NCBI GenBank assembly: GCA_964408195.1 | Contig: CAYOYO010000001.1 | Span: 2,479 to 50,676 of the forward strand | Source of the DNA: an uncultured Oscillospiraceae bacterium | GTDB lineage: Bacteria > Bacillota > Clostridia > Peptostreptococcales > Anaerovoracaceae | Length of the DNA stretch: 48,198 bases | Direction: 5' to 3' | Part shown: positions 7,218 through 23,281 of the stretch, piece after piece | Numbering within the stretch: position 1 is the first letter of the stretch | Layout: the number at the start of each line of letters is the position of its first letter | Position numbers and translations under genes: made by a program | The notes under the pieces: model-generated | Database searches by the model: none | Told to the model about the DNA's origin: nothing | Seen by the model: the letters and a program-made list of their open reading frames with translations, nothing else

Positions 7218-10046
7218 ATGGCAATCCACAGTAAAGGGTTAAAGAAAGAAAAGGGCGAGAAGAACTCAGAGGCTTACAGCTTTCCCGGCCGGCCTGGAAG
7301 CGCAAGAGCCATTGCTTTCGCTATTGTTGTTCTGCTGCTCAGTGGTGTTTATCTGGGATTTGCCTATAACAGATATCGGAGCATAGCCACTCGTGAAGCC
7401 ATCATACTGGCCGAGTCTCTAGAGTCCCTCCTGCATACGGAACATATCGCCGAGCTCATCGGCAGCGCAGAAGATCTACAGAAACCCGAATACATTATAA
7501 CAAAAGAAAGTCTGATCAGTTTAGTGGAGACTATAAATCCCATACGCTTTGCTTACTTACTGGGAGAACGTAAAGGAAATCTGGTCTTTCTTCTGGATTC
7601 CGAAACGCCCGATTCCCCGGGGTACTCGCCTCCCGGGCAAATCTATAGCGAAGCGGCCAATGTATACAGGGAGCCGTTCCGAACAGGGAAAACCGCCATA
7701 GCAGATCGAAAAGAAGACCGTTGGGGCACATGGGTCAGCATCCTGGTGCCGGTCACAGACCCTGTTGACGGCAGCGTAGTTGCCGTGTTTGTAATCGACT
7801 ACGATGCCGCCGAATGGTACCGGGGAATTCGAAAGCATATGATTCCGGATATCATCATTGTACTTTCGATTCTCATGCTCCTGACAGCTTTGGTTTACTC
7901 TCTTTTCCAGAGAAATACTCTAAAGAAACTCAGCGAAAAGTTGGCATTTGATGAAGCCTTGTATCACAATGTGTTTAAGCAGGCCCCCATCGGCATTGCC
8001 ATTGTCAATAACAAGAATTTTGTTGTCCGATCCCAATACGGGTCCATGAATATCAATCCCATGTTTGAACGGATTTTAGGCAGAACCGGAACAGAATTGA
8101 GTGAAGTACAGTGGACGGAAATCACGCACCCTGAAGACTTGGCGGAGGATCTGGATAAGTTCGACAGATTCCAGAGCTGCGAAATCAACGGTTATTCCAT
8201 GGAAAAGCGGTTCCTCAAGCCGGATGGCTCCAGCGTCTGGACCCATATGAAAATCGTTCATCTCTTAGGAGGGGACCAGAAGTTCCCCATGCACTTGTGC
8301 CTGCTGGAAGACATCTCTGCCCGAAAGGCTTCGGAGACCAATTTAAAAGAAAGCGAACGAAGCAAATCCGTGCTTCTCTCTAATCTCCCCGGAATGGCCT
8401 ACCGCTGCAAATACGACTACCAGGGAACCATGCTCTATGTATCGGCAGGCTGTTATCACCTGACCGGCTATCTGCCGGAGAGTTTTCTCAACAACAAAGA
8501 TCTTGCGTTTAACGATATCATCACACCGGGATACCGGAACATCCTCCTGGAAGAATGGAATCGAACCGTACCCAATAAGCTCCCCTATAAATGTGAATAT
8601 GAAATCATTACCGCACATGGTCAGCATAAGTGGGTTCTGGAGATGGGAGAGGGTGTTTATGATGATGAGGGAGAGGTTGAGGCTCTCGAAGGAATTATAC
8701 TGGATATATCAGACAGGAAAGAGATGGAGGACATCTTAAAATACAATAGCGAACACGATATGTGGACCGGCCTCTATAACCGCCGTTACCTGGAGGACCT
8801 TCTGAAGAAGGACAGCAAATCCGAGTACGCCGGGAAAAGCGCCCTGGTGAGCATCAACCTGACCGGGGTCAACTCCCTCAGCCTGATCTACGGTTTTCAT
8901 TACAGTCGTGATTTGATTAAAAAAGCGGCGGAATCCTTAAGCGAGCTCTGCAGCGAAAAACACCGTCTCTTCAACACCTATGAAAACCGGTTTGTATTTT
9001 ATATCAAGGACTATGAAGCCGACTGGGAGGTGCCCGCATTCTGCGAAGCGGTGGCTCAAAGGCTGGATGTTATATTCTCAGTGGAAAGAGTCAGCATCGG
9101 AATCGGTGTCATTGAGATTCAGGACCACAACAGGCATGATATCGGCCTTCTGCTGAAAAACCTGCTGGTAGCGTCTGAAAAAGCCATCGACAGCATGGAG
9201 ACGGATGTGGGGATCTGTTTTTTCGATAGTGAGGTGGAAGCTCAGATTCTTCGAGAAGAAGCAATTATAAGAGAATTGGATCAAATCGCAGCACAGGATC
9301 ATATGGGCGGGCTTTATCTCCAATACCAACCCATACTGGAACTCGCCACTGACAGAATCTGTGGTTTTGAAGCTCTGGCCAGGCTGAACAGTGACAAACT
9401 GGGGCTGGTGATGCCCATGGAATTCATCCCCCTGGCAGAGAAGACGAAGCTCATTCTCCCTTTGGGGGAAAAATTGCTCCTCTGCGCTCTTGGCTTTCTC
9501 CGTCAATTGAAGGAAAAAGGGTTGGAACATGTGAGCATATCCGTGAACATTTCCGCCATTCAGCTGCTTAGAAGAGGCTTTGCGGAACGGTTGTTTGAGA
9601 TGATAGAAGAGATGGGCGTAAATCCGGAAAGACTCTGCATTGAGATCACCGAGACGGTCTTTGCCTCAAACTACCAGGAAATAAACATCATCCTCAGCAA
9701 GTTCCGCCAAATGGGTATCAACATTGCCATCGACGATTTCGGCACCGAGTATTCCTCTCTCGCCAGAGAAAGGGAGCTGAATGTGACCTGCCTCAAGATT
9801 GACAGATATTTCATCGACAAACTGCTGAAAATCGACCCGGAACAAGCCATCACCGGCGACATCATATCCATGGCTCACAAGCTTGGACACTGCGTCACGG
9901 CAGAAGGAGTAGAAGAGGAAAGACAGCTTAAGTATCTGCGAGATCACGGCTGCGACAAAATTCAAGGGTATCTGATCAGCAAGCCCGTGGATGAGGAAGA
10001 AGCCCTTGCCTTTCTTTCTACAATTAACGATGAGGATTGCCTCTAG
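7218..10046 (+). CDS. Membrane sensor protein: extracytoplasmic sensor domain, 2 PAS domains, degenerate GGDEF, and EAL (c-di-GMP phosphodiesterase)
   Basis: Two TM segments flank a roughly 170-aa loop. The EAL domain has all its signature residues (GFEALARL, SVNIS, EITE, DDFGTEYSSL, KIDRYFI, EGVEEE, QGY). The GGDEF domain starts at WTGLYNRRYL, but its signature position reads YENRF. Confidence 0.85.
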   Translation: MAIHSKGLKKEKGEKNSEAYSFPGRPGSARAIAFAIVVLLLSGVYLGFAYNRYRSIATREAIILAESLESLLHTEHIAELIGSAEDLQKPEYIITKESLISLVETINPIRFAYLLGERKGNLVFLLDSETPDSPGYSPPGQIYSEAANVYREPFRTGKTAIADRKEDRWGTWVSILVPVTDPVDGSVVAVFVIDYDAAEWYRGIRKHMIPDIIIVLSILMLLTALVYSLFQRNTLKKLSEKLAFDEALYHNVFKQAPIGIAIVNNKNFVVRSQYGSMNINPMFERILGRTGTELSEVQWTEITHPEDLAEDLDKFDRFQSCEINGYSMEKRFLKPDGSSVWTHMKIVHLLGGDQKFPMHLCLLEDISARKASETNLKESERSKSVLLSNLPGMAYRCKYDYQGTMLYVSAGCYHLTGYLPESFLNNKDLAFNDIITPGYRNILLEEWNRTVPNKLPYKCEYEIITAHGQHKWVLEMGEGVYDDEGEVEALEGIILDISDRKEMEDILKYNSEHDMWTGLYNRRYLEDLLKKDSKSEYAGKSALVSINLTGVNSLSLIYGFHYSRDLIKKAAESLSELCSEKHRLFNTYENRFVFYIKDYEADWEVPAFCEAVAQRLDVIFSVERVSIGIGVIEIQDHNRHDIGLLLKNLLVASEKAIDSMETDVGICFFDSEVEAQILREEAIIRELDQIAAQDHMGGLYLQYQPILELATDRICGFEALARLNSDKLGLVMPMEFIPLAEKTKLILPLGEKLLLCALGFLRQLKEKGLEHVSISVNISAIQLLRRGFAERLFEMIEEMGVNPERLCIEITETVFASNYQEINIILSKFRQMGINIAIDDFGTEYSSLARERELNVTCLKIDRYFIDKLLKIDPEQAITGDIISMAHKLGHCVTAEGVEEERQLKYLRDHGCDKIQGYLISKPVDEEEALAFLSTINDEDCL

Positions 10047-10078
10047 ACGGACAACCCACTATTAAGGGGAGAAGATTC

Positions 10079-12787
10079 ATGAAAAACGGAAAAACCGGCT
10101 TTACAATAAAAAGGATCATTTTACTCACCTTTACAGCCTCCTTATTGGTTTCTTTCGCCTGCTGCGGAGCGGTAATCTTTTCAAACTGGATCACCTCTTC
10201 AATGGAAGCGGCGGCGGCCACGTCGGCGGAAATCAACGAAGATTTGCGTGAACGGGTGATCGCTTTTATGGAGGTGCCTTATCATCTCAATGATATGAAC
10301 CATAAAATCATCGAAAACGGAATGCTTGATTTGTCCCTTGCCACTGAGCGGGAGAAATTTTTTGCCGGTGTGTTGAGTTCAGTGAAGGAGGATATCTACA
10401 GCTTTAGTTACGGCACTACAAAGGGAGAATACTACGGCGCCAGGCGAAATGAGAAGGGTCAGATTGAAATCATGAGGAATGACGCCTATACAGGAGGAAA
10501 TTCCTGGTACTATGCGATAAAGGACGATTTAACAGCGGGGGCGCTTTCGGTTCAGGCAGGTCCATTTGATCCACGTACCAGAGCCTGGTATAAAGCGGCT
10601 GTTGAAGCCGCGGGGCCGGTTTTCTCCCCTATCTACAAGCATTTTGTCATGAATGATTTGACGGTATCTGCTGCATGGCCCGTCTACGATGATGGGGGAG
10701 AACTTTCGGGAGTATTGGGAACCCACCTGCTTCTGTCGGATATGGGTGCATATCTACAAAATGCAGTTACCAAATATGAGGGGATCGCCGTCATTATAGA
10801 AAAAAGTACCGGCCTGCTTATCGCAAATTCAATGGGCGTAGATAATTTTACCATGGGGAAAGATGGGACTCCGGAGCGTTTGGGGTTGGATGCTCTGGAC
10901 AGCGAAGATTTAAAAAAAGCCTACGAGGAATCTTTCATCACGGGCAAATCTCTTCAAAAGGTTTATAAAGGTAAGCTGGACAACTTTTTTTTAGACACAT
11001 CGGAGATACAAATGGAGGGAATCCAATGGATTCTCATTTCCGCTATTCCCCAATCCACGTTTTTGGGGGATGCAATGACCGGCATGGGTTGGGCGGCCCT
11101 TCTGGCCATTGTATTTTTCATATTATCGGTTTTGACCTATCATCTGATTATGAGGAAGTTCTTGAAGCCTATGTATCAATTGCTCCGGATATCTGAACAA
11201 TTGGCCGCCGGAGATCTGACAAAAAGAGCTCAAATCGTAAGAGAAGATGAAATCGGATTTCTCGCAAAAGGGTTCAACAGCGTGGCAGATAAGATGCAAT
11301 CTCTCATAGACAATCTGGAAGCAACGGTGGAGACGCGTACCCGTGAGCTTACCGAAGCAAATCTGGCCTTGCAGGAAAGCAAAGACCAGCTTCGGCTGAT
11401 CCTGGATTCCGCTGCAGAAGCCATTTATGGCATCGATCTTCAGGGAAACTGCACCTTCTGCAATGCCAGCTGCATAAAAATACTGGGGTACAGCAGCCAG
11501 GAAGATTTACTGGGAAGAAATATGCATTGGCAGATTCACCATACAAGAAGAGACGGGACTCCTTTCCCGATTGATGATTGCAGTATTTTCAAAGCCTTTC
11601 TGAAAGGGGAAGGTTCCCATGTGGACGAAGAGGTGTTCTTTAGGGCCGACGGCACTTCCTTTGATGTGGAATACTACTCCTATCCCCAGATTAGGGATGG
11701 AAAAATAATCGGCGCCGTCATCACCTTTATGGATATCTCAGACCGGAAAGAAAGAGAAGCGGAAATTGAATACCTGAGTTGTCATGACCCGCTGACGAGT
11801 CTCAAGAACAGGAGGTGTCTGGAGGACAATCTCCCTAAAATCGACATAACCGACAATCTGCCTCTTTCAGTTATCTTTGGAGACATCAATGGCCTAAAGA
11901 TGACAAACGACGTGTTCGGACATGCCGCCGGTGATGAATTGATTAAAAAATCGGCGGAGATCCTGCAGCAATCCTGCAGAGACAAGGATACCGTAGCACG
12001 CATGGGAGGAGACGAATTTATCATCCTTTTGCCCAAAACCACCGGAGAGAATGCACAAAAGATCATTGAGCGTATCCGAGCCGGATTTGAAGACGCCCAT
12101 GTAGAGGCGATCAAGTGCAGCATCTCACTGGGTCTTGACACAAAGACAAGCTCGGAACAACCCCTGGACGAGATTATGGGAAACGCAGAAAACGCTATGT
12201 ACAGGGACAAGACCATGAATCGAAAAACCATAAATGCCACCATCATCGATACCTTGCTGAAATCCCTGCATACCGCTTGCCCTAGGGAAAAACAACATTC
12301 GGAAGCTGTCAGCAGTCTATGCGAAGAAGTGTGTTCTACTCTCGGCCTTCCCGAAACAGAAATAGCTACCCTGAAACGAGCAGGATACCTTCACGACATC
12401 GGAAAAATCGTGCTGGAGAAAAACATGCTCTTCAAGGATTCACTCAACGACTTAGAAATGGAAAAAATGCAGCAGCATTCCGCCGTGGGCTATCGGATTC
12501 TCAGTCTCTTTGACGATACGTTGGACCTGGCCGAACTTGTGTACGGACACCACGAGAGGTGGGATGGAACCGGTTATCCCAGAGGATTGAAAGAGAAGCA
12601 GATTCCCTTGCTTTCAAGAATCATCGCGGTGGTGGAGACTTACGACCGGGTGGTTAACAGGGGAATCTTGTCTTTCAATGAAAGAAAAAATGATGCGCTG
12701 GAGGTTATAAAATCCGGTGCGGGGACCCAGTTCGACCCGGAAGTCGCCGCTGCATTTCTCCGGGAGATCAAGAAATCTGCAGTGTGA
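10079..12787 (+). CDS. Membrane sensor protein: Cache-like domain, HAMP, PAS, GGDEF and HD-GYP (both a c-di-GMP synthase and a hydrolase domain)
   Basis: It has an intact GGDEF (ARMGGDEFIILLP) preceded by HDPLTSLKNRR. The HD-GYP signatures are YLHDIGK and HHERWDGTGYPRG. I prefer the ATG at 10079 (RBS AAGGGGAG) over the track's TTG at 10037, which overlaps the upstream gene. Confidence 0.85.
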   Translation: MKNGKTGFTIKRIILLTFTASLLVSFACCGAVIFSNWITSSMEAAAATSAEINEDLRERVIAFMEVPYHLNDMNHKIIENGMLDLSLATEREKFFAGVLSSVKEDIYSFSYGTTKGEYYGARRNEKGQIEIMRNDAYTGGNSWYYAIKDDLTAGALSVQAGPFDPRTRAWYKAAVEAAGPVFSPIYKHFVMNDLTVSAAWPVYDDGGELSGVLGTHLLLSDMGAYLQNAVTKYEGIAVIIEKSTGLLIANSMGVDNFTMGKDGTPERLGLDALDSEDLKKAYEESFITGKSLQKVYKGKLDNFFLDTSEIQMEGIQWILISAIPQSTFLGDAMTGMGWAALLAIVFFILSVLTYHLIMRKFLKPMYQLLRISEQLAAGDLTKRAQIVREDEIGFLAKGFNSVADKMQSLIDNLEATVETRTRELTEANLALQESKDQLRLILDSAAEAIYGIDLQGNCTFCNASCIKILGYSSQEDLLGRNMHWQIHHTRRDGTPFPIDDCSIFKAFLKGEGSHVDEEVFFRADGTSFDVEYYSYPQIRDGKIIGAVITFMDISDRKEREAEIEYLSCHDPLTSLKNRRCLEDNLPKIDITDNLPLSVIFGDINGLKMTNDVFGHAAGDELIKKSAEILQQSCRDKDTVARMGGDEFIILLPKTTGENAQKIIERIRAGFEDAHVEAIKCSISLGLDTKTSSEQPLDEIMGNAENAMYRDKTMNRKTINATIIDTLLKSLHTACPREKQHSEAVSSLCEEVCSTLGLPETEIATLKRAGYLHDIGKIVLEKNMLFKDSLNDLEMEKMQQHSAVGYRILSLFDDTLDLAELVYGHHERWDGTGYPRGLKEKQIPLLSRIIAVVETYDRVVNRGILSFNERKNDALEVIKSGAGTQFDPEVAAAFLREIKKSAV

Positions 12788-13084
12788 GGACGTTCCGTTC
12801 CTTGCAAAGAAAAATGCAGAAAAAATGGGAACACACAGGACAATTTCACCTTGGCCATTGAAGAAAAAGGTACAGCATTCAGTAAGATGCGATGAAACCT
12901 TTAATCGAGGATTTCAAATCTCCAGAATTTTAATCTCAACATTTACAGGAAAGAAATTTTGTGGTAAAGTCAAAAGCATATTGCATTATTGTATACATGT
13001 TTTTATTTTGGACTCATGGGGTTTGTTTCGGTTTGAAGGCCCAAGCCGTTTTCCTACTTCATGAGTCCCGGCGAGGAGTTACTT

Positions 13085-14650
13085 ATGATTGGAGACAAAG
13101 GACAAATACTGATTGCGATGGTTCTGTACATCGCTGTAGTAATCGGGATCGGCGTTTACTACGCAAAGAGAGCGGGGGAGAGCAGCCACAATTACCTCAT
13201 CGGAGGCAGATCCCTGGGACCCTGGATTACCGCTATGGGAGCAGAAGCTTCGGATATGAGCGGCTGGCTTCTCATGGGCTTGCCCGGTGTAGCTTATTGG
13301 TACGGGTTAAGCGATGCGATCTGGACAGCCATCGGACTGCTGGTCGGAACCTACCTGAACTGGCTCTTTGTATCGAAGCGATTGCGGAACTATACAGTCA
13401 TTGCAGGAGATTCCATAACGATTCCCGACTTTTTCAGCAACCGTTTCAGAGAGAAGAAAAAAGTGCTTATGACCATAGCTGCCTTGTTCATCTTGATTTT
13501 CTTCACCGTGTACGCAGCCAGCTGTCTGGTAACAGTGGGAAAACTGTTCAGCACCTTGTTTGATGTGAAGTATCAATACATGATGATTGCGGGAGCTGTA
13601 TTTGTTGTCTGTTATACATATATTGGCGGGTTTCTTGCTGAAAGTGCCTCGGACTTCATGCAGGGCATCGTCATGTTCTTTTCTCTTGCCATCGTAATGA
13701 TTGCGGGTGTAACCACCGCGGGCGGAGTGTCTGCAGTGATTGAAAATGTACAACAGATCCCCGGATTCTTTGAATTTTTCGGCATTGCCCAACCGGTTAT
13801 GGCGGAGGGTGTCCAGCAAGTAGGAGAAGGAGGCATGCCGCTCTTTGGCGACAGGGCCTCTTACGGGCTTCTTACCATCATTTCTACCCTTTCCTGGGGG
13901 TTGGGATATTTCGGTATGCCCCAGGTGCTCTTGAAGTTCATGGCTATTAAAAATCCCGGAGAACTGAAGATGTCCAGGCGCATCGCTACAATCTGGTGCG
14001 CCATATCGCTGATGGCAGCGGTTTCCATCGGCATCATCGGCAGGGCGCTGTATCCGGATGCTTTCCTGACCCAGGGCTCAGCAGAGAGTATTTTCATCCT
14101 GCTTTCCACAAGCTTTTTCCTTCCGATTGTAGCGGGTGTTGTAATGGCAGGTGTTCTGGCAGCCACAATCAGTTCTTCCGACTCCTACCTGCTCATCGCT
14201 GCCTCCGCATTTTCCAAGAATATCTTTCATGGATTGCTGAAAAAGGATGCTTCCGACAAGGCGATTCTCCATAGCACCAGAATTACTCTCATCGTTATAG
14301 CCATATGCGCCATGATTATTGCACTGGACGAAAACAGCGTTATTTTCACGGTAGTCTCCTTTGCCTGGGCCGGGTTCGGTGCCACCTTCGGCCCCACCAT
14401 GCTCTTTTCCCTCTTCTGGAAACGAATCACCAGAGCGGGGGCGATTGCAGGCATGCTCAGCGGCGGCAGTATGGTCTTTTTGTGGAAGCTGGTGCTGAAA
14501 CCCATGGGAGGAATCTTTGGAATCTATGAACTGTTTCCTGCATTTGTTACATCCTGTCTATTTATAGTCATCGTGTCCATGCTTACGAAAGAGCCGGATG
14601 AGAAGATCCTGAAGGAATTCGAAGCAGCGAAAAAGGTCAGTTCAAACTAA
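13085..14650 (+). CDS. putP: Sodium:proline symporter (SSS family)
   Basis: YLIGGRSLGPWITAMGAEASDMSGWLLMGLPG closely matches my recollection of E. coli PutP. It is polytopic throughout. The ATG at 13085 has a GGAGG-like RBS; the track start at 13061 is less likely. Confidence 0.85.
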   Translation: MIGDKGQILIAMVLYIAVVIGIGVYYAKRAGESSHNYLIGGRSLGPWITAMGAEASDMSGWLLMGLPGVAYWYGLSDAIWTAIGLLVGTYLNWLFVSKRLRNYTVIAGDSITIPDFFSNRFREKKKVLMTIAALFILIFFTVYAASCLVTVGKLFSTLFDVKYQYMMIAGAVFVVCYTYIGGFLAESASDFMQGIVMFFSLAIVMIAGVTTAGGVSAVIENVQQIPGFFEFFGIAQPVMAEGVQQVGEGGMPLFGDRASYGLLTIISTLSWGLGYFGMPQVLLKFMAIKNPGELKMSRRIATIWCAISLMAAVSIGIIGRALYPDAFLTQGSAESIFILLSTSFFLPIVAGVVMAGVLAATISSSDSYLLIAASAFSKNIFHGLLKKDASDKAILHSTRITLIVIAICAMIIALDENSVIFTVVSFAWAGFGATFGPTMLFSLFWKRITRAGAIAGMLSGGSMVFLWKLVLKPMGGIFGIYELFPAFVTSCLFIVIVSMLTKEPDEKILKEFEAAKKVSSN

Positions 14651-14683: not shown

Positions 14684-14704
14684 CTTGGCGTATTGTGTAA
14701 GAAG

Positions 14705-14746
14705 AAGGGGAAATTTCCGAAATGCCGGGGATTTCCCCTTTTATTT
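14705..14746 (+). terminator. Intrinsic terminator-like hairpin
   Basis: A 10-bp stem (aaggggaaat / atttcccctt) with a 16-nt loop, followed by ttatttg. Confidence 0.5.
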
Positions 14747-14849: not shown

Positions 14850-15467
14850 TTGAACATTCTCATTGTAGATGATCAACCTCTTTTGAGGAAAGGAGTTTCA
14901 CAGGTGTTGCTGTCTGAGAAAGGCGGCCAGCATTTCGCAGAGGCGGCAACAGTAGCCGAAGCCATAGAAATCCACAAGAAAAACCCGGCGGATTTGATTT
15001 TTCTCGAGTTGCATCTGATAGACGGAAGCGGGTTTGACCTGATTAGCAGCGTCCGTGCTCTTCCGGGAAAATCCCCGAAATTCATGTTGTTAGCCTCATC
15101 CATCAGCGTCTTTGAGTTTCGGAGGGCAAAAGAACTGGATGTGGATGGGTATCTCCTGAAGGAGGCAGATGGGGATGAGTTGAAATACGCATTTAGACAA
15201 ATCCTTCGGGGAGAAAAATATTATCCTTCCAGGTTGGTAGAAAAAGCCTTAAGCGGAAGGGAGGCAGACGGTATACGTCTCCTGACGGACAGGGAGATGG
15301 ATGTGCTGGCAGAGCTGAGCAAGGGGTTGACCAATTCACAAATCGGAGACAATTTGTATATCTCAGAAGGAACGGCAAAAAAACACATCAGCAACATTTT
15401 ATCGAAGCTGAATTTATCAAACCGCATGGAAGTACTGGTGTATGCCAGTAAATTATCCGGCAAATAA
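14850..15467 (+). CDS. Orphan NarL/LuxR-family response regulator with an atypical receiver (Glu at the phospho-acceptor position)
   Basis: The receiver is MNILIVDDQPLLRKG...DLIFLELHL, and the C-terminal LuxR HTH is REMDVLAELSKGLTNSQIGDNLYISEGTAKKHISNILSKL. The start is TTG with a GGAGG RBS. No histidine kinase gene is adjacent. Confidence 0.85.
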   Translation: MNILIVDDQPLLRKGVSQVLLSEKGGQHFAEAATVAEAIEIHKKNPADLIFLELHLIDGSGFDLISSVRALPGKSPKFMLLASSISVFEFRRAKELDVDGYLLKEADGDELKYAFRQILRGEKYYPSRLVEKALSGREADGIRLLTDREMDVLAELSKGLTNSQIGDNLYISEGTAKKHISNILSKLNLSNRMEVLVYASKLSGK

Positions 15468-15518: not shown

Positions 15519-16307
15519 ATGAAAAAGATATTCAGCAGAGCGGGACTTCTGTTCCTGGCAGCAGCCACCATGGGAATGCTTGGAGTCAGCTATGCAGGTT
15601 ATACCGACAGTTTGAAAGTGGATACGGAGCTGTCCGCAGGAAGCATGAGCTTTGAATTCATGGACAGCGGGAAGGACCGGGATTTTATAATTGGCATACA
15701 AGAGAGCGAGAAAGAGAAGGTTACGAAGCTCGATGCAAAGATAAACTACGACGGAAAGACTCTTACCATCACGGATATGGATCCCATTGATATGTCTTTT
15801 TTAAAGAATGGGAAGTTGCAAATCCTCATCCGTTATATTGTGGAAGTCACAGAAGAGGAGAGTGTTCTAATGGCGGCGAGTATCATAGAAAAGGATCAGA
15901 GAAGCTACCTGGGAGAGATTCCTTTTCAGCTTATATCAAGTACGCCCCTGTGGTCTATAGAAGGCAAATCTGCAAGCTGGGGATTGGGAGATGGAGACTT
16001 GGGCGGGGTTCCGCAAGTCATTTATGAGCTTCTTCCTCAAACTCTGGCAAACTTCCGTGCATCTCATACCCTATGGTTCAATGAGAAAAAGGATAGGATG
16101 GAGGGAACCATTCTTTTGGAACAAATAGACATTCCAAAATTACTATCCATTAAAAAAGTAGAACTGAGTGCTTTTGGTTTACCGGATGATATTCTAAAAG
16201 AAATGGCTGCAGAGAAGAAGCTGAACCTGACTATGGTAGGCAGCTATGGTTTCGAAATCCCGCTGGTCCTGGATCAATTCAATGCAGAAGGGGAGGGATT
16301 GTTATGA
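15519..16307 (+). CDS. Secreted protein with a SipW-cognate-type signal peptide (candidate fibre or accessory subunit)
   Basis: The N-terminus is MKKIFSRAGLLFLAAATMGMLGVSYAGYTDSLKV: a basic n-region, an h-region, then the YAGYTDSL junction shared with the two paralogues. The C-terminal LDQFNAEG resembles the WDQFNVG of the 18057 protein. The RBS is GGAGGAG. Confidence 0.7.
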   Translation: MKKIFSRAGLLFLAAATMGMLGVSYAGYTDSLKVDTELSAGSMSFEFMDSGKDRDFIIGIQESEKEKVTKLDAKINYDGKTLTITDMDPIDMSFLKNGKLQILIRYIVEVTEEESVLMAASIIEKDQRSYLGEIPFQLISSTPLWSIEGKSASWGLGDGDLGGVPQVIYELLPQTLANFRASHTLWFNEKKDRMEGTILLEQIDIPKLLSIKKVELSAFGLPDDILKEMAAEKKLNLTMVGSYGFEIPLVLDQFNAEGEGLL

Positions 16308-16732
16308 ATCGCAGAAAGCTGATAATAGCCATATCCGCAATGATTGCAATGACTTATGCAATCGTTTCCACCAGCTACGGATACTGGACGGACCAGCTTC
16401 ATATATCCGGTGAAGCCGGCTTTGTGTTTCAAATACCTGTGGTGAACGATGTTAAAATGCCGTTGGAGATACCTTTGGAAGGAATGAGCGCACTTGTAAT
16501 AGAGACGAACAGCGATGAGCCGGAAACAGGGATTGAACCAACGGAGGATATTCAACCGGAAACGACTCCGGAAACAGAAGAACAAACAGCCCCGGTAGCA
16601 GAAGAACAAACAGATCCGGCAATAGCGGATGAAGGGGATGTGGAGACAAGGCCTGTTACAGTCGATGAGAAACAGCCGGAATCTACAGAAGCAGAAGGAT
16701 CAGCAACCGATGAAAGTGCAGAACTACAATAA
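16304..16732 (+). CDS. Small secreted protein with a SipW-cognate-type signal peptide and an acidic Glu/Pro/Thr-rich tail
   Basis: The N-terminus MNRRKLIIAISAMIAMTYAIVSTSYGYWTDQLHI carries the same junction motif at the same residue positions (25-32) as the upstream protein. It overlaps the upstream stop in an ATGA. The C-terminal half is low-complexity and acidic. Confidence 0.65.
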   Translation: MNRRKLIIAISAMIAMTYAIVSTSYGYWTDQLHISGEAGFVFQIPVVNDVKMPLEIPLEGMSALVIETNSDEPETGIEPTEDIQPETTPETEEQTAPVAEEQTDPAIADEGDVETRPVTVDEKQPESTEAEGSATDESAELQ

Positions 16733-17921
16733 ATATCGAAGAATCAGCAACCTATTGCTGATTCTCTTTATAGGAATTGCTCTGCTGCCTTATCTTGTTG
16801 AACTGGCACAGGGCAGTTCTTATCAATTGGCCCGGAAAGTGATTCCGGCAATCTGGTGTGCTTTTTTAGTCATAATGTTCTTTTTTGTTCCAAAAGTCCA
16901 TGCGGCCAGCAGGCTGGTGAAGCGGGATACAATTTATATGGAAGCGGTGATCTGTGCGGTAATCCTCATCTCAGCCAGGATATTATTGGGATCCATGCTG
17001 GGCCAGCTGGGCTCCAGCCCCTATGACCTGTCTCTCTCCGGAATTGCCGGAAATCTGTTCTTTGTTTTGCCGGCTATGGCTGCCAGAGAGGTCATACGGA
17101 GCTATGTGCTGGGCACCTATTGCAGTGTACATAATTTGAAGGTATTTATCTTTATCACTTTGCTGATGACCGTTTCCGGCTTGAATTATTCCAACCTGTT
17201 GCTGGTATCTGACATGGAGGAAATGTCCATATTTCTTGCTAAGGAAGCAGGCCCTATGCTTTGCCAGAATATCATGCTGTCTTACTTGGCCCTCTACGGC
17301 GGCCCCATAGCTGCAATCCTGTATGGAGGTATTTTGGAACTCTTCCACTGGATTTCTCCTATACTTTCCTCACTGAACTGGTTGGCGGAAGGTGCTGTGG
17401 GTATTCTCGTCCCCGTGGGCTTTATCCTTTTTCTCATAGGGAAATACGAAGAACAGAAGAATCGATCCAAGACTCTGAAAGAGCGAAAAGGAGGGCTGGT
17501 GGGATGGTCTGCCACCGCGCTTTTCTCCATAGGTCTTCTCTGGTTTATCGCCGGTGTCTTTCCCATCGTACCCTCTGTGGTGGTCACCGGTAGTATGGAG
17601 CCGCTGATCTACCCGGGGGATGTGATACTTTTAAAGCAGATGAAGACGGAAGAGCAAATGCGCAGCCTCCATGCCGGAGATGTGATTCAATTTCAAAGAG
17701 ATGAGATCCGCATCACCCATCGTATCGTAGAAATCCTGGATGATGGTATCGGAAATCTGACATTTCGCACCAGGGGAGACAACAACTCTGCTGAGGATAG
17801 CCGGCTTGTTCATCCAAATGATATTAAGGGGGAATTGGTTCAAGTGATTCCAAAGATCGGTTATCCGTCTCTTTTCATCAAGGGGTCCGGCCAAAAGGAA
17901 ACCGGAGATTTTGAATTCTGA
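16710..17921 (+). CDS. sipW: Signal peptidase I, SipW/ER/archaeal type, fused to an N-terminal polytopic membrane domain of about 270 aa
   Basis: The C-terminal domain has VVTGSMEPLIYPGDVILL (Ser codon 17592-17594), RITHRIVEI (His codon 17718-17720) and TRGDNNSAED. These closely match the B. subtilis SipW boxes as I recall them. About 7 hydrophobic segments precede the peptidase anchor. I prefer the start at 16710 (MKVQNYNKY) over the track's 16629. Confidence 0.8.
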   Translation: MKVQNYNKYRRISNLLLILFIGIALLPYLVELAQGSSYQLARKVIPAIWCAFLVIMFFFVPKVHAASRLVKRDTIYMEAVICAVILISARILLGSMLGQLGSSPYDLSLSGIAGNLFFVLPAMAAREVIRSYVLGTYCSVHNLKVFIFITLLMTVSGLNYSNLLLVSDMEEMSIFLAKEAGPMLCQNIMLSYLALYGGPIAAILYGGILELFHWISPILSSLNWLAEGAVGILVPVGFILFLIGKYEEQKNRSKTLKERKGGLVGWSATALFSIGLLWFIAGVFPIVPSVVVTGSMEPLIYPGDVILLKQMKTEEQMRSLHAGDVIQFQRDEIRITHRIVEILDDGIGNLTFRTRGDNNSAEDSRLVHPNDIKGELVQVIPKIGYPSLFIKGSGQKETGDFEF

Positions 17922-18056: not shown

Positions 18057-19025
18057 ATGAAGAGAAAAGTATTAGCATGTGTTCTTGCTTGTGCGATGTT
18101 GTTCCTGGGCATGGGGTACGCCTACTGGACGGATAGCCTGCAAATCGACAATGCAGTAACCACAGGGGAGCTTCAAGTAAAATTTGTTGACCTGGCTCTC
18201 TATGGCCAGTATGCCGGACAGGACAACGAAAAGTCATGGGCAATTATCGATGGTGTGGGTACGCCGGGCTATGTAGACAACTATTTCTTTGATCGGGGCG
18301 ATGAAAACAACGGCAATGGATTATACAATATCATTGCAACCCCAGCTGATCTAGCTGCCTACAATGCCAGAGTACACGGATTTACACAGACTGACTTTAC
18401 TGCGGCTTTGGATGACCCCCAAAAGATGGATGTAGTTGTTGGCCCTTATGGACTAAACACAGATTCTTCCAGTAAAATCAACATCGCGATTAATAAGATG
18501 TATCCCGGTTATGCACAGGTCTTCCAGGCTGACATCGTCAATGTGGGAACCATAGCTGCAAAACTCAGCGACATCGATGTTGCTGTTACCGACATGCCCA
18601 ACAACGATATTAAAAGCATGATTGGTGTATCTCTTAGAGTGCTCAGGGAATACGCGGGAACTGAGGGGCATGTTGATGTATTCTCAACATTAGATCTTCC
18701 CACATCTGCTTACTTCACCCTGGGCGGCGTTTGCTTCATCCGTCTCTCCGCTCTGGAAAGCCTGAATTTGGCCAGCGTGATCGACAGATCTCACGACCTC
18801 CTCTATATCACACCGGATGATGATAACAGGATGGACATTTATCTGGGAATCGCCATGGATCCGGATGAAGATGGTGTTTATACCAGCGGTATTTCCAGCG
18901 ACCTGTCCGGTAAGTCCGATGACAGCACAGAGAATATCAATACAGCCAAATTCAATCTGAACTTCTTATGGGATCAATTCAATGTTGGAGTTCCCGTGGG
19001 AGGAGACCACATTCATTTAGAGTAG
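18057..19025 (+). CDS. TasA/camelysin-like secreted protein with a SipW-cognate-type signal peptide; probable major subunit
   Basis: The N-terminus is MKRKVLACVLACAMLFLGMGYAYWTDSLQI. The internal MYPGYAQVFQADIVNVGTIAAKL resembles the TasA-family PGD...N.G strand motif. It has a strong RBS (AAAGGAGA), its own upstream intergenic region, and a perfect hairpin downstream. Confidence 0.7.
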   Translation: MKRKVLACVLACAMLFLGMGYAYWTDSLQIDNAVTTGELQVKFVDLALYGQYAGQDNEKSWAIIDGVGTPGYVDNYFFDRGDENNGNGLYNIIATPADLAAYNARVHGFTQTDFTAALDDPQKMDVVVGPYGLNTDSSSKINIAINKMYPGYAQVFQADIVNVGTIAAKLSDIDVAVTDMPNNDIKSMIGVSLRVLREYAGTEGHVDVFSTLDLPTSAYFTLGGVCFIRLSALESLNLASVIDRSHDLLYITPDDDNRMDIYLGIAMDPDEDGVYTSGISSDLSGKSDDSTENINTAKFNLNFLWDQFNVGVPVGGDHIHLE

Positions 19026-19064: not shown

Positions 19065-19098
19065 ACAGGGTGCCTTAAACTCCTTTAAGGCACCCTGT
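19065..19098 (+). terminator. Perfect 15-bp hairpin between the major-subunit gene and the next gene (attenuator or partial terminator)
   Basis: acagggtgccttaaa, loop ctcc, tttaaggcaccctgt. No T-run follows. Confidence 0.45.
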
Positions 19099-19136: not shown

Positions 19137-20177
19137 ATGAAACTCACATTACATAAAAAGACAAAGAAATATATCTTGGCCATCCTGCTCTTTCTTCTGC
19201 TCTTTACGGCAGTCCAAACATATAATACCGTGAAAAACCAGGAGATAGTCACAGAAGAAAAAGTCATTTTCGAATACAGTTGTGAGCAGGCTCTGGATTA
19301 CAGTGTAAACATCCGGCCCAATGAACTGTATCCGGGAACCGTGCTGGAGGAAGGGAACTATTACAGCAAGCTACTGCTGGACAACATTCAGGCACATTTC
19401 ACGATTGATTATGAGAGCAGTGACTCTACGCCTATCAAGATAGAGTACCAGGTTATTGCAAGGGTGAACGGTTATCAGGGTCAGGCGCCGGAGCAAACGA
19501 TCTATTGGTCTAAAGATTTTCCGCTGATACAAAATAAAATTGTTGAGATAGAAGAAAATAGCTGGACCGGAGAAGAGCAGATTCGTTTTACCTTAGGGGA
19601 ATATGACGCATTTGCCGTGAGAGCAAAGGAAATCTCAGGGATGAAAGTATCCAATGAGGTTGTGGTAGAACTGTTTGGCACCATTACTGCCATGACGGAA
19701 AGCGAGGAAGTGGCAATTCCCCTTTCTTCTTCTCTGCAAATTCCTCTGCTGGAAGATGTGTTTCAGGTGACCAAGAATGCAGGAGAGGCGATTCAAGGCT
19801 CCGTAAAGCAGACAGAAGAAACCATCCTTCCTTTTGACCGTACAAAAGTTTCTCTGTTAGCCGTACTCATGTTGTTAAATGTGGCCGCAATACCCGTGCT
19901 CATGGTTGTGATTAAGGAGCCGGATGAACTCACCATCCAGCGGAGAAAAAACAATGGGCTCATTCGGAATTATGGCAGTCGTCTGGTGGCAATGAAAGAA
20001 ATTCCTGCTCAGGAGTACAGGGGGCTCTATCAGGTGCATAGCATCAAAGACATGATTAAGATTGCCGATGAAATGCAGAGACCGATTTTCTATATTCCCG
20101 ACGATACCACGCTTTTGCGAAACAACGAACTCTTTCTTATCAGTGAAAATACCCTTTATCGATGGAATTCCGCATGA
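19137..20177 (+). CDS. Bitopic membrane protein of unknown function (architecture resembles DUF5305, from recollection)
   Basis: An N-terminal TM (ILAILLFLLLFTAV), an external domain of about 210 aa, a second TM (VSLLAVLMLLNVAAIPVLMVVI), and a cytoplasmic tail of about 90 aa. It is the last gene of the SipW locus. Confidence 0.6.
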   Translation: MKLTLHKKTKKYILAILLFLLLFTAVQTYNTVKNQEIVTEEKVIFEYSCEQALDYSVNIRPNELYPGTVLEEGNYYSKLLLDNIQAHFTIDYESSDSTPIKIEYQVIARVNGYQGQAPEQTIYWSKDFPLIQNKIVEIEENSWTGEEQIRFTLGEYDAFAVRAKEISGMKVSNEVVVELFGTITAMTESEEVAIPLSSSLQIPLLEDVFQVTKNAGEAIQGSVKQTEETILPFDRTKVSLLAVLMLLNVAAIPVLMVVIKEPDELTIQRRKNNGLIRNYGSRLVAMKEIPAQEYRGLYQVHSIKDMIKIADEMQRPIFYIPDDTTLLRNNELFLISENTLYRWNSA

Positions 20178-20200: not shown

Positions 20201-21448
20201 TCAGAGCTCCGGAACAGTTATGCGACCTGCAATGGCGCTGGCTGCAGCCACTGCGGGAGAAGTCAGATAGATCTCCACCGAGGCCGGTCCCATACGACCC
20301 AAGAAATTTCTGTTGTTGGTAGCTACCACACGCTCTCCTTCGCTGAGGATGCCGCCGCTCCTCCCACAGCAGAGGCCACAGCCCGGATGTGTTACAATCG
20401 CGCCGGCTTGCAACAGGGTTTCAAGAATGCCTGCCTGGGAAGCTTCACGATAAACTTTCCGGCTTGCAGGAGTTATGATTAGTTTCACATAGTCTGCAAC
20501 CTTTCTGCCATTGAAGATTCTTGCGGCTGTTTCCAGGTCTTCCAGCCTACCGTTGGTGCAGGAGCCGATAAAGACCTGGTCGATAGGCAGCCCCGCAAGC
20601 TCACTTACCGGCTTGATGTGATCCACGGCTGGAGGGCAGGCAAGGACAGGTACCAACTCTTCTGCGTTATAATGGATATGGGCAGTGTAAGTAGCATCCG
20701 CATCAGCAGTAATATCTGGGATGTCTGTTAAAGAGACACCGCAGTAATCGGCGGTCTTTTCGTCGGGAGCGATAATAGCTGCTTTCGCGCCGGCTTCCAC
20801 CGCCATGTTCGCCATGGTCATGCGGGAGGCAATGCTCATGTCGGAAACGGTGGTTCCTGCGAATTCCAGGGCTTTATAATTGGCTCCGTCCGAACCCAGG
20901 TCGCCAATCAAGCGCAGTATGATATCTTTTGACATGACATTGGACGGGAGCTTGCCATCTATGGTCACTCGGATGGTTTCGGGAACTTTTACCCAAAGCT
21001 GGCCCGTACCCAGAATCGCTGCCATCTCCGTATATCCCACACCAGAAGAAAAGGCACCTACGCTTCCGTAGGTAGTAGTATGGGAGTCGGTGCCGAACAC
21101 AATATAGCCCGGCTTCACATGGCCGGCTTCCGGCATCAGCTGGTGACAGATGCCGTCGCTTCGATGGACTTTTCTGATCCCGTATTTCGCTGCAAAGGCA
21201 TCTCCAATTTCAAAGTGCCGCACGTCTTCCACTCTGCTTGTGGGTACGAGGTGGTCATAAATCAAAACTACTTTATCCGGATTCCAGATCTTTGTAAATC
21301 CCATCTCCTTAAATTTGTCAGCGACAAAAGGGATGAAAATATCATGAATCATGACACGGTCCACACTTACCGTCACGATATGGTTTGCGTGAACCGCCTT
21401 TCCTTGCAAGTTGTTCCTGATTATTTTTTCAATGGCTGTATATCCCAT
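20201..21448 (-). CDS. Aconitase-family dehydratase large subunit (LeuC/HacA type), paralogue 2
   Basis: It has VDRVMIHDI, GTDSHTTTYG and NMAVEAGAKA, plus the Fe-S ligand regions GSCTNGR and PGCGLCCG. Confidence 0.85.
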   Translation of the reverse strand: MGYTAIEKIIRNNLQGKAVHANHIVTVSVDRVMIHDIFIPFVADKFKEMGFTKIWNPDKVVLIYDHLVPTSRVEDVRHFEIGDAFAAKYGIRKVHRSDGICHQLMPEAGHVKPGYIVFGTDSHTTTYGSVGAFSSGVGYTEMAAILGTGQLWVKVPETIRVTIDGKLPSNVMSKDIILRLIGDLGSDGANYKALEFAGTTVSDMSIASRMTMANMAVEAGAKAAIIAPDEKTADYCGVSLTDIPDITADADATYTAHIHYNAEELVPVLACPPAVDHIKPVSELAGLPIDQVFIGSCTNGRLEDLETAARIFNGRKVADYVKLIITPASRKVYREASQAGILETLLQAGAIVTHPGCGLCCGRSGGILSEGERVVATNNRNFLGRMGPASVEIYLTSPAVAAASAIAGRITVPEL

Positions 21449-21491
21449 TTCCTATCCTCTCTTATACTCACTGCACGCTGCAGTACTTATT

Positions 21492-21986
21492 CTATCTTAA
21501 TATTATCCCGTTCTTTTTCTTCATGGCCTCTACAAGACCGCCGGCACCGATGATTTCCATGAGATTTTCCGGAAGGGGAGAGATGGGGTACCTATGGCCC
21601 CTGTGCTCGATGAATTGATTCAGACAGACTGTGATGGAATCTCCTTCTTCCACCTGATCGGGCAAACGATCCTGCTCTATGAGAAGGAGTCCGTTATTTA
21701 TGGCATTGCGATAGAAGATTCTTGCGAAGGATTTGGCGATGACGCAGCCCACCTGCAGGCTCTTGATGATCTCCGGCGCCTGCTCCCTGGACGACCCGCA
21801 GCCGAAGTTTTTCCCCGCCACTAGAATATCTCCCGGTTGGATCAAACCGGCAAGTTCCGGTCGCAGTGGAGAAAAAGCGAATTTTCTCATGTCCCCAATG
21901 CTCTTCATTGCCAAATATTCTGTGGGTATGATGATATCCGTATCGATGTCATCGCCCAATAAAAAGACCTTCCCTTTCATCTCCAT
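21492..21986 (-). CDS. Aconitase-family dehydratase small subunit (LeuD/HacB type), paralogue 2
   Basis: It has DDIDTDIIIPTEYL and GKNFGCGSSREQAP. The ATG at 21986 (MEMKGK) has a GGAGG RBS 6 nt upstream; the track start at 22037 is rejected. Confidence 0.85.
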   Translation of the reverse strand: MEMKGKVFLLGDDIDTDIIIPTEYLAMKSIGDMRKFAFSPLRPELAGLIQPGDILVAGKNFGCGSSREQAPEIIKSLQVGCVIAKSFARIFYRNAINNGLLLIEQDRLPDQVEEGDSITVCLNQFIEHRGHRYPISPLPENLMEIIGAGGLVEAMKKKNGIILR

Positions 21987-22036
21987 ATGATTCCTCCATA
22001 TATTACGTATCCGGGCAATGGCACAATCATTATGCA

Positions 22037-23281
22037 TCAGATTGGCGATACGATTTTCCCTGCAAGAGCCGAAGCTGCCACCGTTGCTGCAGATGCCAGA
22101 TAGACCTTTGAATCCTTGTGTCCCGCTCTGCCTTTAAAGTTCCGCGTGCCGGTTGAAATCAATACTTCTCCTTCGCCGATCACACCCTGACAACTGCCCC
22201 AGCAGACGCTGCAGTTGCTGTTCATGATCATTGCTCCGGCATCCATAAAGATGTCCATGAGCCCTTCCTGCAAGGCTTGCAGATAAACACTGTCTGAAGC
22301 GGGGGATATGAGGAGTCTGACATCCGGGTGGATTTTTCTTCCTTTCAGCAGGGATGCTGCGGTGCGAAGTTCCTCGATACGGCCGTTGTTGCAGGAGCCG
22401 ATAAATCCCTGATCAATCTTTATTTTCCCAATGGAATCTACCTTTACCACGTCATCTACATTGTCGGGTATTGCCACCACCGGGTCGATTTTGCCCAGAT
22501 CGTAATAGAACTCTTTTTCATAGACTGCATCTTCATCACTGTAAAAGAGAGCTTTTGGTTCCCGCCTGCAAACGGCCAGGTATTCAGCGGTTTTTTCATC
22601 CGGTTCGAATATACCGGTCTTTGCACCGGCCTCAACGGCCATATTGGTCAACACCATGCGCTCGTTGATACTCAATGCTTTGGCACCTTCTCCGGTAAAT
22701 TCCATCACCTTATAGGTTGCCCCGTCGGCTCCCAGGTCTCCGATGATGGTCAGGATCAGATCTCTGGGATAAACGCCGTCTTTCAGCTGCCCGGTAAGAT
22801 GAAAGCGAAGGGTAGGGGGGACCAGAACCCAGGACTTGCCCGTTACCATGGAATAGAGAAAATCCGTATTGCCCACACCCGTGCCGAATGCTCCCAGCGC
22901 TCCGTAGGTGCAGGTATGAGAGTCCGCGCCGAAAATCAATTCACCGGGACGCACATATTCTTCCATCATAATCTGATGACATACGCCCTTTCCCTCATAA
23001 AAGGCGATTTCATTAGCCTTTGCAAAATCCCTCATCTTTTTGTGGACTGCTGCAGTCTTGGGATTGTCCGCAGGCATATTGTGATCAATGATGAATACCA
23101 GCTTATCCTTGTCGGCAATTCTGGGCTTTTTCAACATCCGGTTGTACATATCGATGGTCAGGTGGGTGGTACCGTCGTTGCTCATCAAACGATCCACATT
23201 CACCGTATGAATTTCTCCCGCTGCCACTTTCTCTATGCCTGCAGCCGCGGCGATAATCTTTTCGCTGATGGTCATTCCCAT
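22037..23281 (-). CDS. Aconitase-family dehydratase large subunit (LeuC/HacA type), paralogue 1
   Basis: It has VDRLMSNDGT, GADSHTCTYG, NMAVEAGAKT, GSCNNGR and CSVCWGSC. Its start overlaps the upstream small-subunit stop (TAATG). Confidence 0.85.
   Translation of the reverse strand: MGMTISEKIIAAAAGIEKVAAGEIHTVNVDRLMSNDGTTHLTIDMYNRMLKKPRIADKDKLVFIIDHNMPADNPKTAAVHKKMRDFAKANEIAFYEGKGVCHQIMMEEYVRPGELIFGADSHTCTYGALGAFGTGVGNTDFLYSMVTGKSWVLVPPTLRFHLTGQLKDGVYPRDLILTIIGDLGADGATYKVMEFTGEGAKALSINERMVLTNMAVEAGAKTGIFEPDEKTAEYLAVCRREPKALFYSDEDAVYEKEFYYDLGKIDPVVAIPDNVDDVVKVDSIGKIKIDQGFIGSCNNGRIEELRTAASLLKGRKIHPDVRLLISPASDSVYLQALQEGLMDIFMDAGAMIMNSNCSVCWGSCQGVIGEGEVLISTGTRNFKGRAGHKDSKVYLASAATVAASALAGKIVSPI

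Follow-up and report, generated by a model that had tools for sequence, protein, structure and literature searches.

The SipW protein of Bacillus subtilis is a signal peptidase of about 190 amino acids (aa) with N- and C-terminal membrane anchors only; it is dedicated to TasA-type fibre subunits and is encoded beside these substrates in the tapA-sipW-tasA operon. Here we describe a relative of 403 aa, encoded by a gene that we call long sipW, in a stretch of 48,198 nucleotides (nt) of DNA from an uncultured Oscillospiraceae bacterium (the window, in which all positions are counted from the first letter). Both peptidases belong to the same S26B Ser-His class, and B. subtilis SipW is without the CPBP-like domain that is predicted at the N-terminus of the window protein (the N-domain), whereas the window protein is without the C-terminal anchor. 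We give a probability of about 0.55 to the reading that the N-domain is a non-catalytic scaffold or regulator of CPBP fold, which has lost the catalytic histidines and is covalently tied to an active peptidase of the SipW/SEC11 type.

Peptidases with many transmembrane (TM) helices have been noticed before in loci encoding AbpX fibres. A preprint of January 2026 (bioRxiv 10.64898/2026.01.04.697558) described a dedicated type I signal peptidase (SPase I) with ten TM helices in these loci, proposed DUF5305 as an accessory subunit of the SPase, and reported both cyclic di-GMP regulators nearby and the existence of DUF5305-peptidase fusions; the extra helices are only counted there, and neither CAAX, CPBP nor any other fold is mentioned for them. 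The window locus is like these loci in its AbpX-like subunit, its DUF5305 protein and its many-TM peptidase of the TIGR02228 type, and also in its two-component and cyclic di-GMP regulators, and Clostridia such as Natronincola figure in both. It differs in that ten TM helices are given in the preprint versus 8+1 predicted in the window protein, and split and substrate-fused variants are documented here.

Two unfused pairs of membrane proteins offer the nearest analogies for the N-domain. In Staphylococcus aureus, the degenerate CAAX-protease-like protein SpbR inhibits cleavage by the signal peptidase SpsB, with which it associates 1:1 in a validated complex; the contacts involve the SpsB TM helix and an extracellular loop (PMC12260438). 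As in the window fusion, a polytopic, degenerate CAAX-protease-like partner is thus paired with a single-pass type I signal peptidase; however, the S. aureus partners are not fused, SpsB belongs to the bacterial P-type (Ser-Lys) peptidases whereas the window peptidase is of the endoplasmic reticulum (ER)/archaeal Ser-His type, and SpbR matches CPBP by hidden Markov model (HMM), which the N-domain does not. SpdC, a non-catalytic CAAX-protease homologue, scaffolds the single-pass extracellular hydrolase SagB through the TM helix of SagB and the TM3-TM4 loop of SpdC, giving 8+1 helices (bioRxiv 10.1101/2020.05.21.109470). This complex (PDB 6u0o) contains the best structural match of the N-domain and shares with the proposed arrangement eight helices, one partner TM helix and a non-catalytic role, but its two proteins are unfused and the partner is a glucosaminidase, not a peptidase. 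Finally, the eukaryotic signal peptidase complex (SEC11 with SPCS1/2/3; 7p2p, 7p2q) holds the solved structure closest to the window peptidase in its catalytic domain, and places accessory membrane subunits around a single catalytic anchor helix, which is the same idea as that proposed for the N-domain; those subunits, however, are separate polypeptides with a fold unrelated to CPBP.

Results

Long sipW encodes a true fusion protein

The gene and its parts are as follows.

16710..17921, + strand: long SipW-type signal peptidase gene, 403 aa, consisting of a CPBP-like 8-TM domain, linker, anchor helix and S26B catalytic domain (open reading frame (ORF), full-length homologues, AlphaFold2 (AF2) model)
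16710..17462, + strand: N-domain, aa 1-251, eight predicted TM helices (AF2, Foldseek, conservation over 226 sequences)
17085..17099, + strand: TM4 motif R126-E127-V-I-R130 (hhalign, conservation, codons read directly)
17463..17492, + strand: Lys/Arg-rich cytoplasmic linker, aa 252-261, with low predicted local distance difference test (pLDDT) values; cut point of natural split versions (AF2, split loci)
17493..17552, + strand: helix 9, aa 262-281, by which the peptidase is anchored in the membrane (type II); W278 and F279 are invariant (alignment, AF2)
17553..17918, + strand: extracytoplasmic S26B (SEC11/SipW-type) catalytic domain with Ser295, His337, GDNN and Asp363 (TIGR02228, Foldseek, invariant columns)

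The ORF of long sipW runs from an ATG at 16710 to a TGA at 17919-17921. A Shine-Dalgarno-like GAAGGA (16694-16699) ends 10 nt before this ATG, which lies within an upstream 142-aa ORF (16304-16732), and the 23-nt overlap up to the stop of that ORF suggests translational coupling. An alternative in-frame ATG at 16629 would add 27 residues, which are found in none of the homologues, and the start MKVQN is common to the window protein and its close homologues in an alignment of 68 sequences. In a word-indexed search, more than 120 proteins of about 400 aa aligned to 85-100% of the query at 30-84% identity, and the N-terminal ~250 residues are conserved in full length in more than 200 homologues. 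That a SipW-type peptidase is joined to a polytopic membrane module, as put forward in the original prediction from the letters of the sequence, is therefore confirmed, and the N-terminal region is coding. That the upstream frame is non-coding, with the true start near nt 17480, has a negligible probability: it is refuted by the full-length alignment of these homologues, by the confident AF2 fold of the N-terminal region and by the Shine-Dalgarno-like sequence before ATG 16710, and nothing was found in its favour.

The three SipW motifs named at the outset are all present, namely TGSMEP (Ser295 codon at nt 17592-17594), THRIV (His337 codon at nt 17718-17720) and GDNN (residues 356-359), and S295, H337, R338, G356, D357, N359 and D363 are invariant in the 68 homologues. 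The archaeal-type signal peptidase I model of NCBIfam, TIGR02228, matched residues 288-390 with 71 bits (cutoff 51.85), whereas the Bacillus SipW equivalog NF046067 scored 68.9 bits, below its cutoff of 190, indicating that the protein is a member of the SipW class and not an orthologue of B. subtilis SipW. With the full-length AF2 model, the best Foldseek matches in PDB were human SEC11A/C (7p2q_A/7p2p_A, E 3e-5, TM-score (target) 0.62-0.65), and SpdC (6u0o_A) was matched as well. The window peptidase is of the Ser-His rather than the Ser-Lys class with its catalytic residues intact, and is predicted to be active. A hydropathy scan gave several hydrophobic segments before residue 260 and then one at 262-297; neither the scan nor the AF2 model showed any hydrophobic segment past residue 297 that could serve as a C-terminal anchor after the catalytic domain.

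The N-domain is conserved and resembles SpdC in its predicted fold

AF2 placed eight helices in the N-domain (6-34, 38-59, 69-97, 109-137, 143-164, 169-197, 199-215 and 224-251), one more than the approximately seven extra hydrophobic segments counted originally, so that nine TM helices are predicted in the whole protein (8+1), the last leading into a beta-rich catalytic domain. Short strands were predicted in two outer loops, at 99-102 (TM3-TM4) and 218-221 (TM7-TM8). The full-length model, built from the 68-sequence alignment, had a pLDDT of 85.5 and a predicted TM-score (pTM) of 0.70, and the N-domain alone reached 89 and 0.86, respectively. From the positive-inside rule, and given that the catalytic domain has to be outside, we infer that the N-terminus and the linker are cytoplasmic, whereas the conserved loops would lie outside the cytoplasm, like the active site. 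These loops are G101-x-S103-P104-Y105 (TM3-TM4), which is the best-conserved extracytoplasmic element of the family, and P217-x-L-P-x-L-x-W224 (TM7-TM8).

In an alignment of 226 N-domains (26-84% identity), about 20 positions are at least 80% conserved, including intramembrane charged residues, and W49, G94, P104, Y105, N115, E127, R130, P182, G198, Y205, P217, L219, P220, W224 and P235 are conserved to at least 90%; position 220 is Pro in the family and Ser in the window protein. The segment AAREVIRSY, with its suspected polar positions, proved to hold the two charged residues that are best conserved (E127 98%, R130 approximately 100%); N115 (97%) and Y205 (94%), elsewhere in the N-domain, are kept as well. 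In the second suspected segment, ILELFHW, the polar residues are not conserved (His213 27%, Glu210 27%), and the moderately conserved ones are Phe212 and Trp214. No His or Cys is conserved anywhere in the N-domain, the maxima per column being 40% and 31%, respectively.

When the N-domain model was compared with PDB by Foldseek, the top match was 6u0o_A (E 0.033, probability 1.0, TM-scores 0.57/0.59, 257 columns, 14% sequence identity in the structural alignment), presumably SpdC of the SagB-SpdC complex, since an eight-helix bundle is aligned over these columns. The next matches were Methanococcus Rce1 (4cad_I and 4cad_L, probability 0.77-0.85, TM-scores 0.36-0.44), and all matches beyond SpdC and Rce1 had a probability of at most 0.2. 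These two share the CAAX-protease/CPBP fold, and no other protein with it was among the matches returned. Judging from the model, the N-domain has a CPBP-like fold, is not assignable to the CPBP family and is without the residues for CPBP catalysis; we read it as a degenerate and probably non-catalytic CPBP-like scaffold. A relationship to exosortases or archaeosortases, which had also been considered, was rejected: the catalytic Cys-Arg-His triad is absent, with no conserved Cys or His, NCBIfam gave no match, and no such structure was among the Foldseek matches.

Split and substrate-fused versions of the N-domain

An HMM of the N-domain alone (A2) matched 1223 clusters (50% identity) at E<=1e-3, of which 757 reached E<=1e-10. 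A peptidase domain was present in 118 of the 140 new N-domain representatives among the matches listed; most of the other 22 are frameshifted or broken off at the end of a contig. When one genome per species was scanned with the full-length alignment, 485 genomes had a relative, and the best 80 of their loci were inspected. All 80 carry the long form and belong to Bacillota, mostly Clostridia, the nearest being a metagenome-assembled genome (MAG) of Anaerovoracaceae with 83% identity. The proteins of about 400 aa from the word-indexed search come from Natronincola, Dehalobacter, Serpentinicella, Vallitalea, Proteocatella, Clostridium thermosuccinogenes and Halobacillus, beside many MAGs, and where named they are annotated as 'signal peptidase I' only.

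Two further architectures were found among the homologues.

L005 5754-6965 and L006 1197-2408: split version, a 263-aa N-domain gene followed by a 133-aa peptidase gene (contigs of 58% GC)
L004 4115-5539, L087 8001-9479 and L088 1478-2956: substrate-fused version, a CPBP-like domain followed by a SipW-type signal peptide and Ig-like/dockerin domains

The separate N-domain gene beside sipW, which the original prediction had proposed to look for, is thus found on two independent metagenomic contigs (L005 and L006) and is the sole documented true split among the 22 representatives without peptidase domain. Its product (P0191, 263 aa) ends exactly in the linker, and 18 nt further on starts the gene of a 133-aa S26 peptidase with a single TM helix (SGSMSP, HRVV and KGDAN); upstream of the pair lie three TasA-like genes with SipW-type signal peptides (GYASWTKDL). 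The substrate-fused proteins P0217 (474 aa) and P0235 (492 aa, in two samples) fall into different 50% clusters. Each consists, in this order, of the N-domain, a Lys-rich linker, a hydrophobic helix that ends in a SipW-type cleavage/donor-strand motif (SLAYPYWTETL and TLAYSHWTDTI, respectively) and Ig-like or dockerin domains. Their loci have TasA-like genes upstream and an HTH_45 regulator, which suggests an archaeal origin, and no peptidase gene is in view near L004, L087 or L088. In the long, split and substrate-fused forms alike, the N-domain precedes one N-in/C-out helix, either the anchor of the peptidase or a signal peptide, as fits a module that binds such helices. The split and fused genes lend Rosetta-stone (gene-fusion) support, of a purely genetic kind, to the partnership of N-domain and peptidase.

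Some homologues depart from these forms. P0223 (537 aa) has an N-domain cut after the TM7-TM8 loop and continues with the Recombinase and zinc-ribbon domains of a large serine recombinase, which looks like a mobile element inserted in a long sipW gene or a chimeric assembly. P0194, P0203, P0220, P0240 and P0250 are long-form peptidases of 489-569 aa, some with an extra 100-150 residues before the N-domain; about 160 residues separate the N-domain and the peptidase domain in P0194, and about 110 residues extend beyond the peptidase domain in P0250. In locus L025 (uncultured Clostridiales), a canonical CPBP protease gene (7-906, + strand; EEVLFRG, FGLAH and HIANN) lies about 4 kb upstream of long sipW, which may be coincidence.

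Long sipW lies in a fibre gene cluster

The neighbours of long sipW in the window, and the number of the 80 inspected loci in which they recur, are as follows.

14850..15467, + strand: LuxR/NarL-type response regulator at the head of the cluster (Response_reg and GerE; homologue in 63/80 loci)
15519..16307, + strand: 262-aa secreted protein with a SipW-type signal (GVSYAGYTDSL) (sequence; homologues in 25/80 loci)
16304..16732, + strand: 142-aa secreted protein with a SipW-type signal (TSYGYWTDQL) (sequence; homologues in 22/80 loci)
18057..19025, + strand: AbpX-like (TasA-superfamily) fibre subunit, 322 aa, with a SipW-type signal peptide (GMGYAYWTDSL) (TIGR04088; homologue in 75/80 loci)
19137..20177, + strand: DUF5305 membrane protein, 346 aa (PF17231, E 7.7e-29; in 73/80 loci)

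The window locus is an AbpX/TasA-type fibre cluster. The family profile of the 322-aa protein (A4) matched the cryo-EM structure of AbpX (9sj2_C, E 1e-14) and TasA (5of1, E 0.0065). The 262-aa protein, for which neither Pfam nor PDB gave a match, is a candidate minor or tip subunit. The 142-aa protein combines a short folded part with a repeat-like tail that is acidic and rich in Pro, Glu and Thr (PETTPETEEQTAPVAEEQTDP), and its homologues range from 91 to 157 aa. Three of the related loci (L001-L003) have the same gene order, DUF5305 included, plus HisKA_3 kinases; unlike in these, no HisKA_3 kinase adjoins the LuxR-type regulator in the window.

Further elements were seen within and around the cluster. 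A perfect 15-bp GC-rich hairpin (19065-19098), which the scan scored on the minus strand only, separates the AbpX-like and DUF5305 genes; it may act as a partial terminator and so favour the mRNA of the major subunit over that of the accessory genes. A strong terminator-like hairpin of 17 pairs and a T-run (14703-14742, + strand), 3' of a transporter gene (13061-14650), delimits the regulator-fibre cluster on its upstream side. Some 2 kb before the cluster lies the gene of a 916-aa membrane sensor (10037-12787, + strand) with a GGDEF motif (RMGGDEFIILL) and an HD-GYP motif (HHERWDGTGYP). On the other side, two ORFs of about 415 aa and one of 181 aa (20201-23281, - strand) are convergent with the cluster and resemble, by eye, the large and small subunits of aconitase-family dehydratases (isopropylmalate/homoaconitate type).

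Discussion

We propose that the N-domain would pack against the anchor helix of the peptidase (helix 9), and that its TM3-TM4 and TM7-TM8 outer loops would touch the catalytic domain, so that the active site is kept in a fixed place above the membrane. A lateral groove, which the N-domain may also provide, would accommodate signal peptides of the AbpX/TasA-like subunits encoded in the cluster. The peptidase would thereby become dedicated to, or gated for, these fibre subunits, and DUF5305 is probably a further accessory subunit. The packing, the non-catalytic role and the selection or gating of substrates are drawn by analogy, the contacts and their functional effect from SpdC-SagB and SpbR-SpsB.

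Several results weigh against this scaffold reading. Scanning the whole protein and 19 N-domains against Pfam and NCBIfam at E<=10 gave no match to the N-domain, with no PF02517 among the results; a search of PDB sequences with the N-domain profile gave a chance match only (a reductase at E 0.2). We prepared a control CPBP alignment (A5) of 38 PF02517 homologues, seeded by the canonical CPBP gene of L025, in which E165, E166, R170, H198, H231 and N235 are invariant. Comparison of the N-domain with A5 by hhalign was not significant (probability 11.6% with 32 sequences and 15.7% with 226, reversed control 3.8%). The alignment was colinear and put R126-E127-x-I-R130 on the CPBP motif 1 EExxxR with a one-residue deletion, the first Glu being missing and the spacing from E to R being 3 versus 4 or 5 in CPBP; motif 2 (FxxxH) and motif 3 (HxxxN/D) are absent, with variable or hydrophobic residues at the aligned His positions. 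CPBP homology is therefore not demonstrable by sequence, and the Foldseek E-values are marginal (0.03-0.4) and the TM-scores moderate (0.36-0.59). Of the faint CPBP resemblance noted at first sight, the part that stands is that at the fold level, with SpdC and Rce1 as top matches, whereas no significant match in Pfam, NCBIfam or hhalign backs it. For contacts of the N-domain with helix 9 or the catalytic domain, mean-field direct coupling analysis (DCA) of 273 full-length sequences gave 59-314 and 144/145-262/263 as the top inter-domain couplings, which we rejected as shared-gap artefacts of a few sequences. The near-invariant Glu127 and Arg130 in TM4 could reflect a retained chemical function rather than a pure scaffold, and the precedents themselves diverge in their effect, SpbR inhibiting its partner and SpdC tuning product length.

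The retained charges bring up the possibility that the N-domain is an active, atypical intramembrane protease of the glutamic type, which would clear or trim signal peptides after SipW cleavage or make a second cut in fibre precursors. Its CPBP-like fold, the placement of the near-invariant Glu127/Arg130 on EExxxR, the further conserved intramembrane polar residues Asn115 and Tyr205, and the functional sense of joining two successive processing steps would all suit such an enzyme. We nevertheless regard it as unlikely, and the intramembrane enzyme identity hinted at originally was not supported, since both His and the Asn/Asp of CPBP motifs 2 and 3, which are needed in active members (PMC12260438), are absent, with His at no more than 40% in any column. 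The E-to-R spacing is 3 instead of 4 or 5, and the S. aureus CPBP homologues with degenerate motifs (SpdC, LnsB and SpbR) are all non-catalytic. At the other extreme, an enlarged but inert membrane anchor on an ordinary SipW would explain why databases label these proteins merely 'signal peptidase I' and why no enzymatic motif is recognisable; this is very doubtful, given the conserved positions described above with their intramembrane charges and two outer loops, and given that the N-domain is kept as a separate gene in the split loci and joined to another partner in other lineages. Such persistence and recruitment would not be expected of an inert anchor.

Two further ideas link the N-domain to fibre assembly, in line with the original suggestion that the fusion could couple cleavage to polymerisation or anchoring. 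As a platform or anchor, the N-domain would use its outer loops to grip the growing filament at its base, or the last subunit while this is still uncleaved, so that cleavage and donor-strand polymerisation take place at one site. The conserved extracytoplasmic loops are consistent with this, as are the archaeal-type variants in which the N-domain is fused to a subunit-like protein with the donor-strand motif YPYWTETL, and a model for Clostridium perfringens BsaA in which SipW cuts after the subunit has joined a membrane-held oligomer (bioRxiv 10.1101/2024.11.04.621531). However, the fused substrate-like proteins have an apparently normal cleavage site and may simply be released, and the literature proposes DUF5305 or SLH/LPXTG proteins as anchors; we hold this idea to be improbable, if somewhat less so than an active protease. 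More speculatively, and with a low likelihood similar to that of the protease, the N-domain might be a substrate-specific gate, in which a site formed by Glu127, Arg130 and Asn115 together with the lateral groove captures AbpX/TasA-like signal peptides and presents them to the peptidase only once donor-strand exchange of the subunit before is complete. A single membrane machine, in which DUF5305 takes part, would then mechanically couple secretion with cleavage and polymerisation, and the archaeal subunit-fused forms would be membrane-anchored fibre primers. If true, this gate would correspond, within a single polypeptide of prokaryotes, to the eukaryotic signal peptidase complex.

It had been considered that the long forms might already be a well-annotated subfamily. 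Their annotation goes no further than 'signal peptidase I', but the architecture appears in passing in the 2026 preprint, where the extra domain is unnamed. No earlier description seems to exist of the fold assignment, the relation to SpbR and SpdC or the two variants, split and substrate-fused, and we found no literature linking long SipW forms to the CPBP fold. A fold is now assigned to the 'extra helices' of the dedicated peptidases of AbpX/TasA-like biofilm fibres, and N115, E127, R130, Y205 and the G-x-S-P-Y and P-x-L-P-x-L-x-W loops are marked out as residues for mutation.

Degenerate CAAX-protease homologues are very common in bacteria. Their role as scaffolds or regulators of single-pass envelope enzymes has been recognised recently (SpdC-SagB, SpbR-SpsB and LnsB-LnsA), and a natural fusion to a signal peptidase provides independent evolutionary support for that scaffold principle, carrying it from the bacterial Ser-Lys to the archaeal/ER Ser-His peptidases. 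If the N-domain gates cleavage, it would account for the processing of fibre subunits apart from general secretion.

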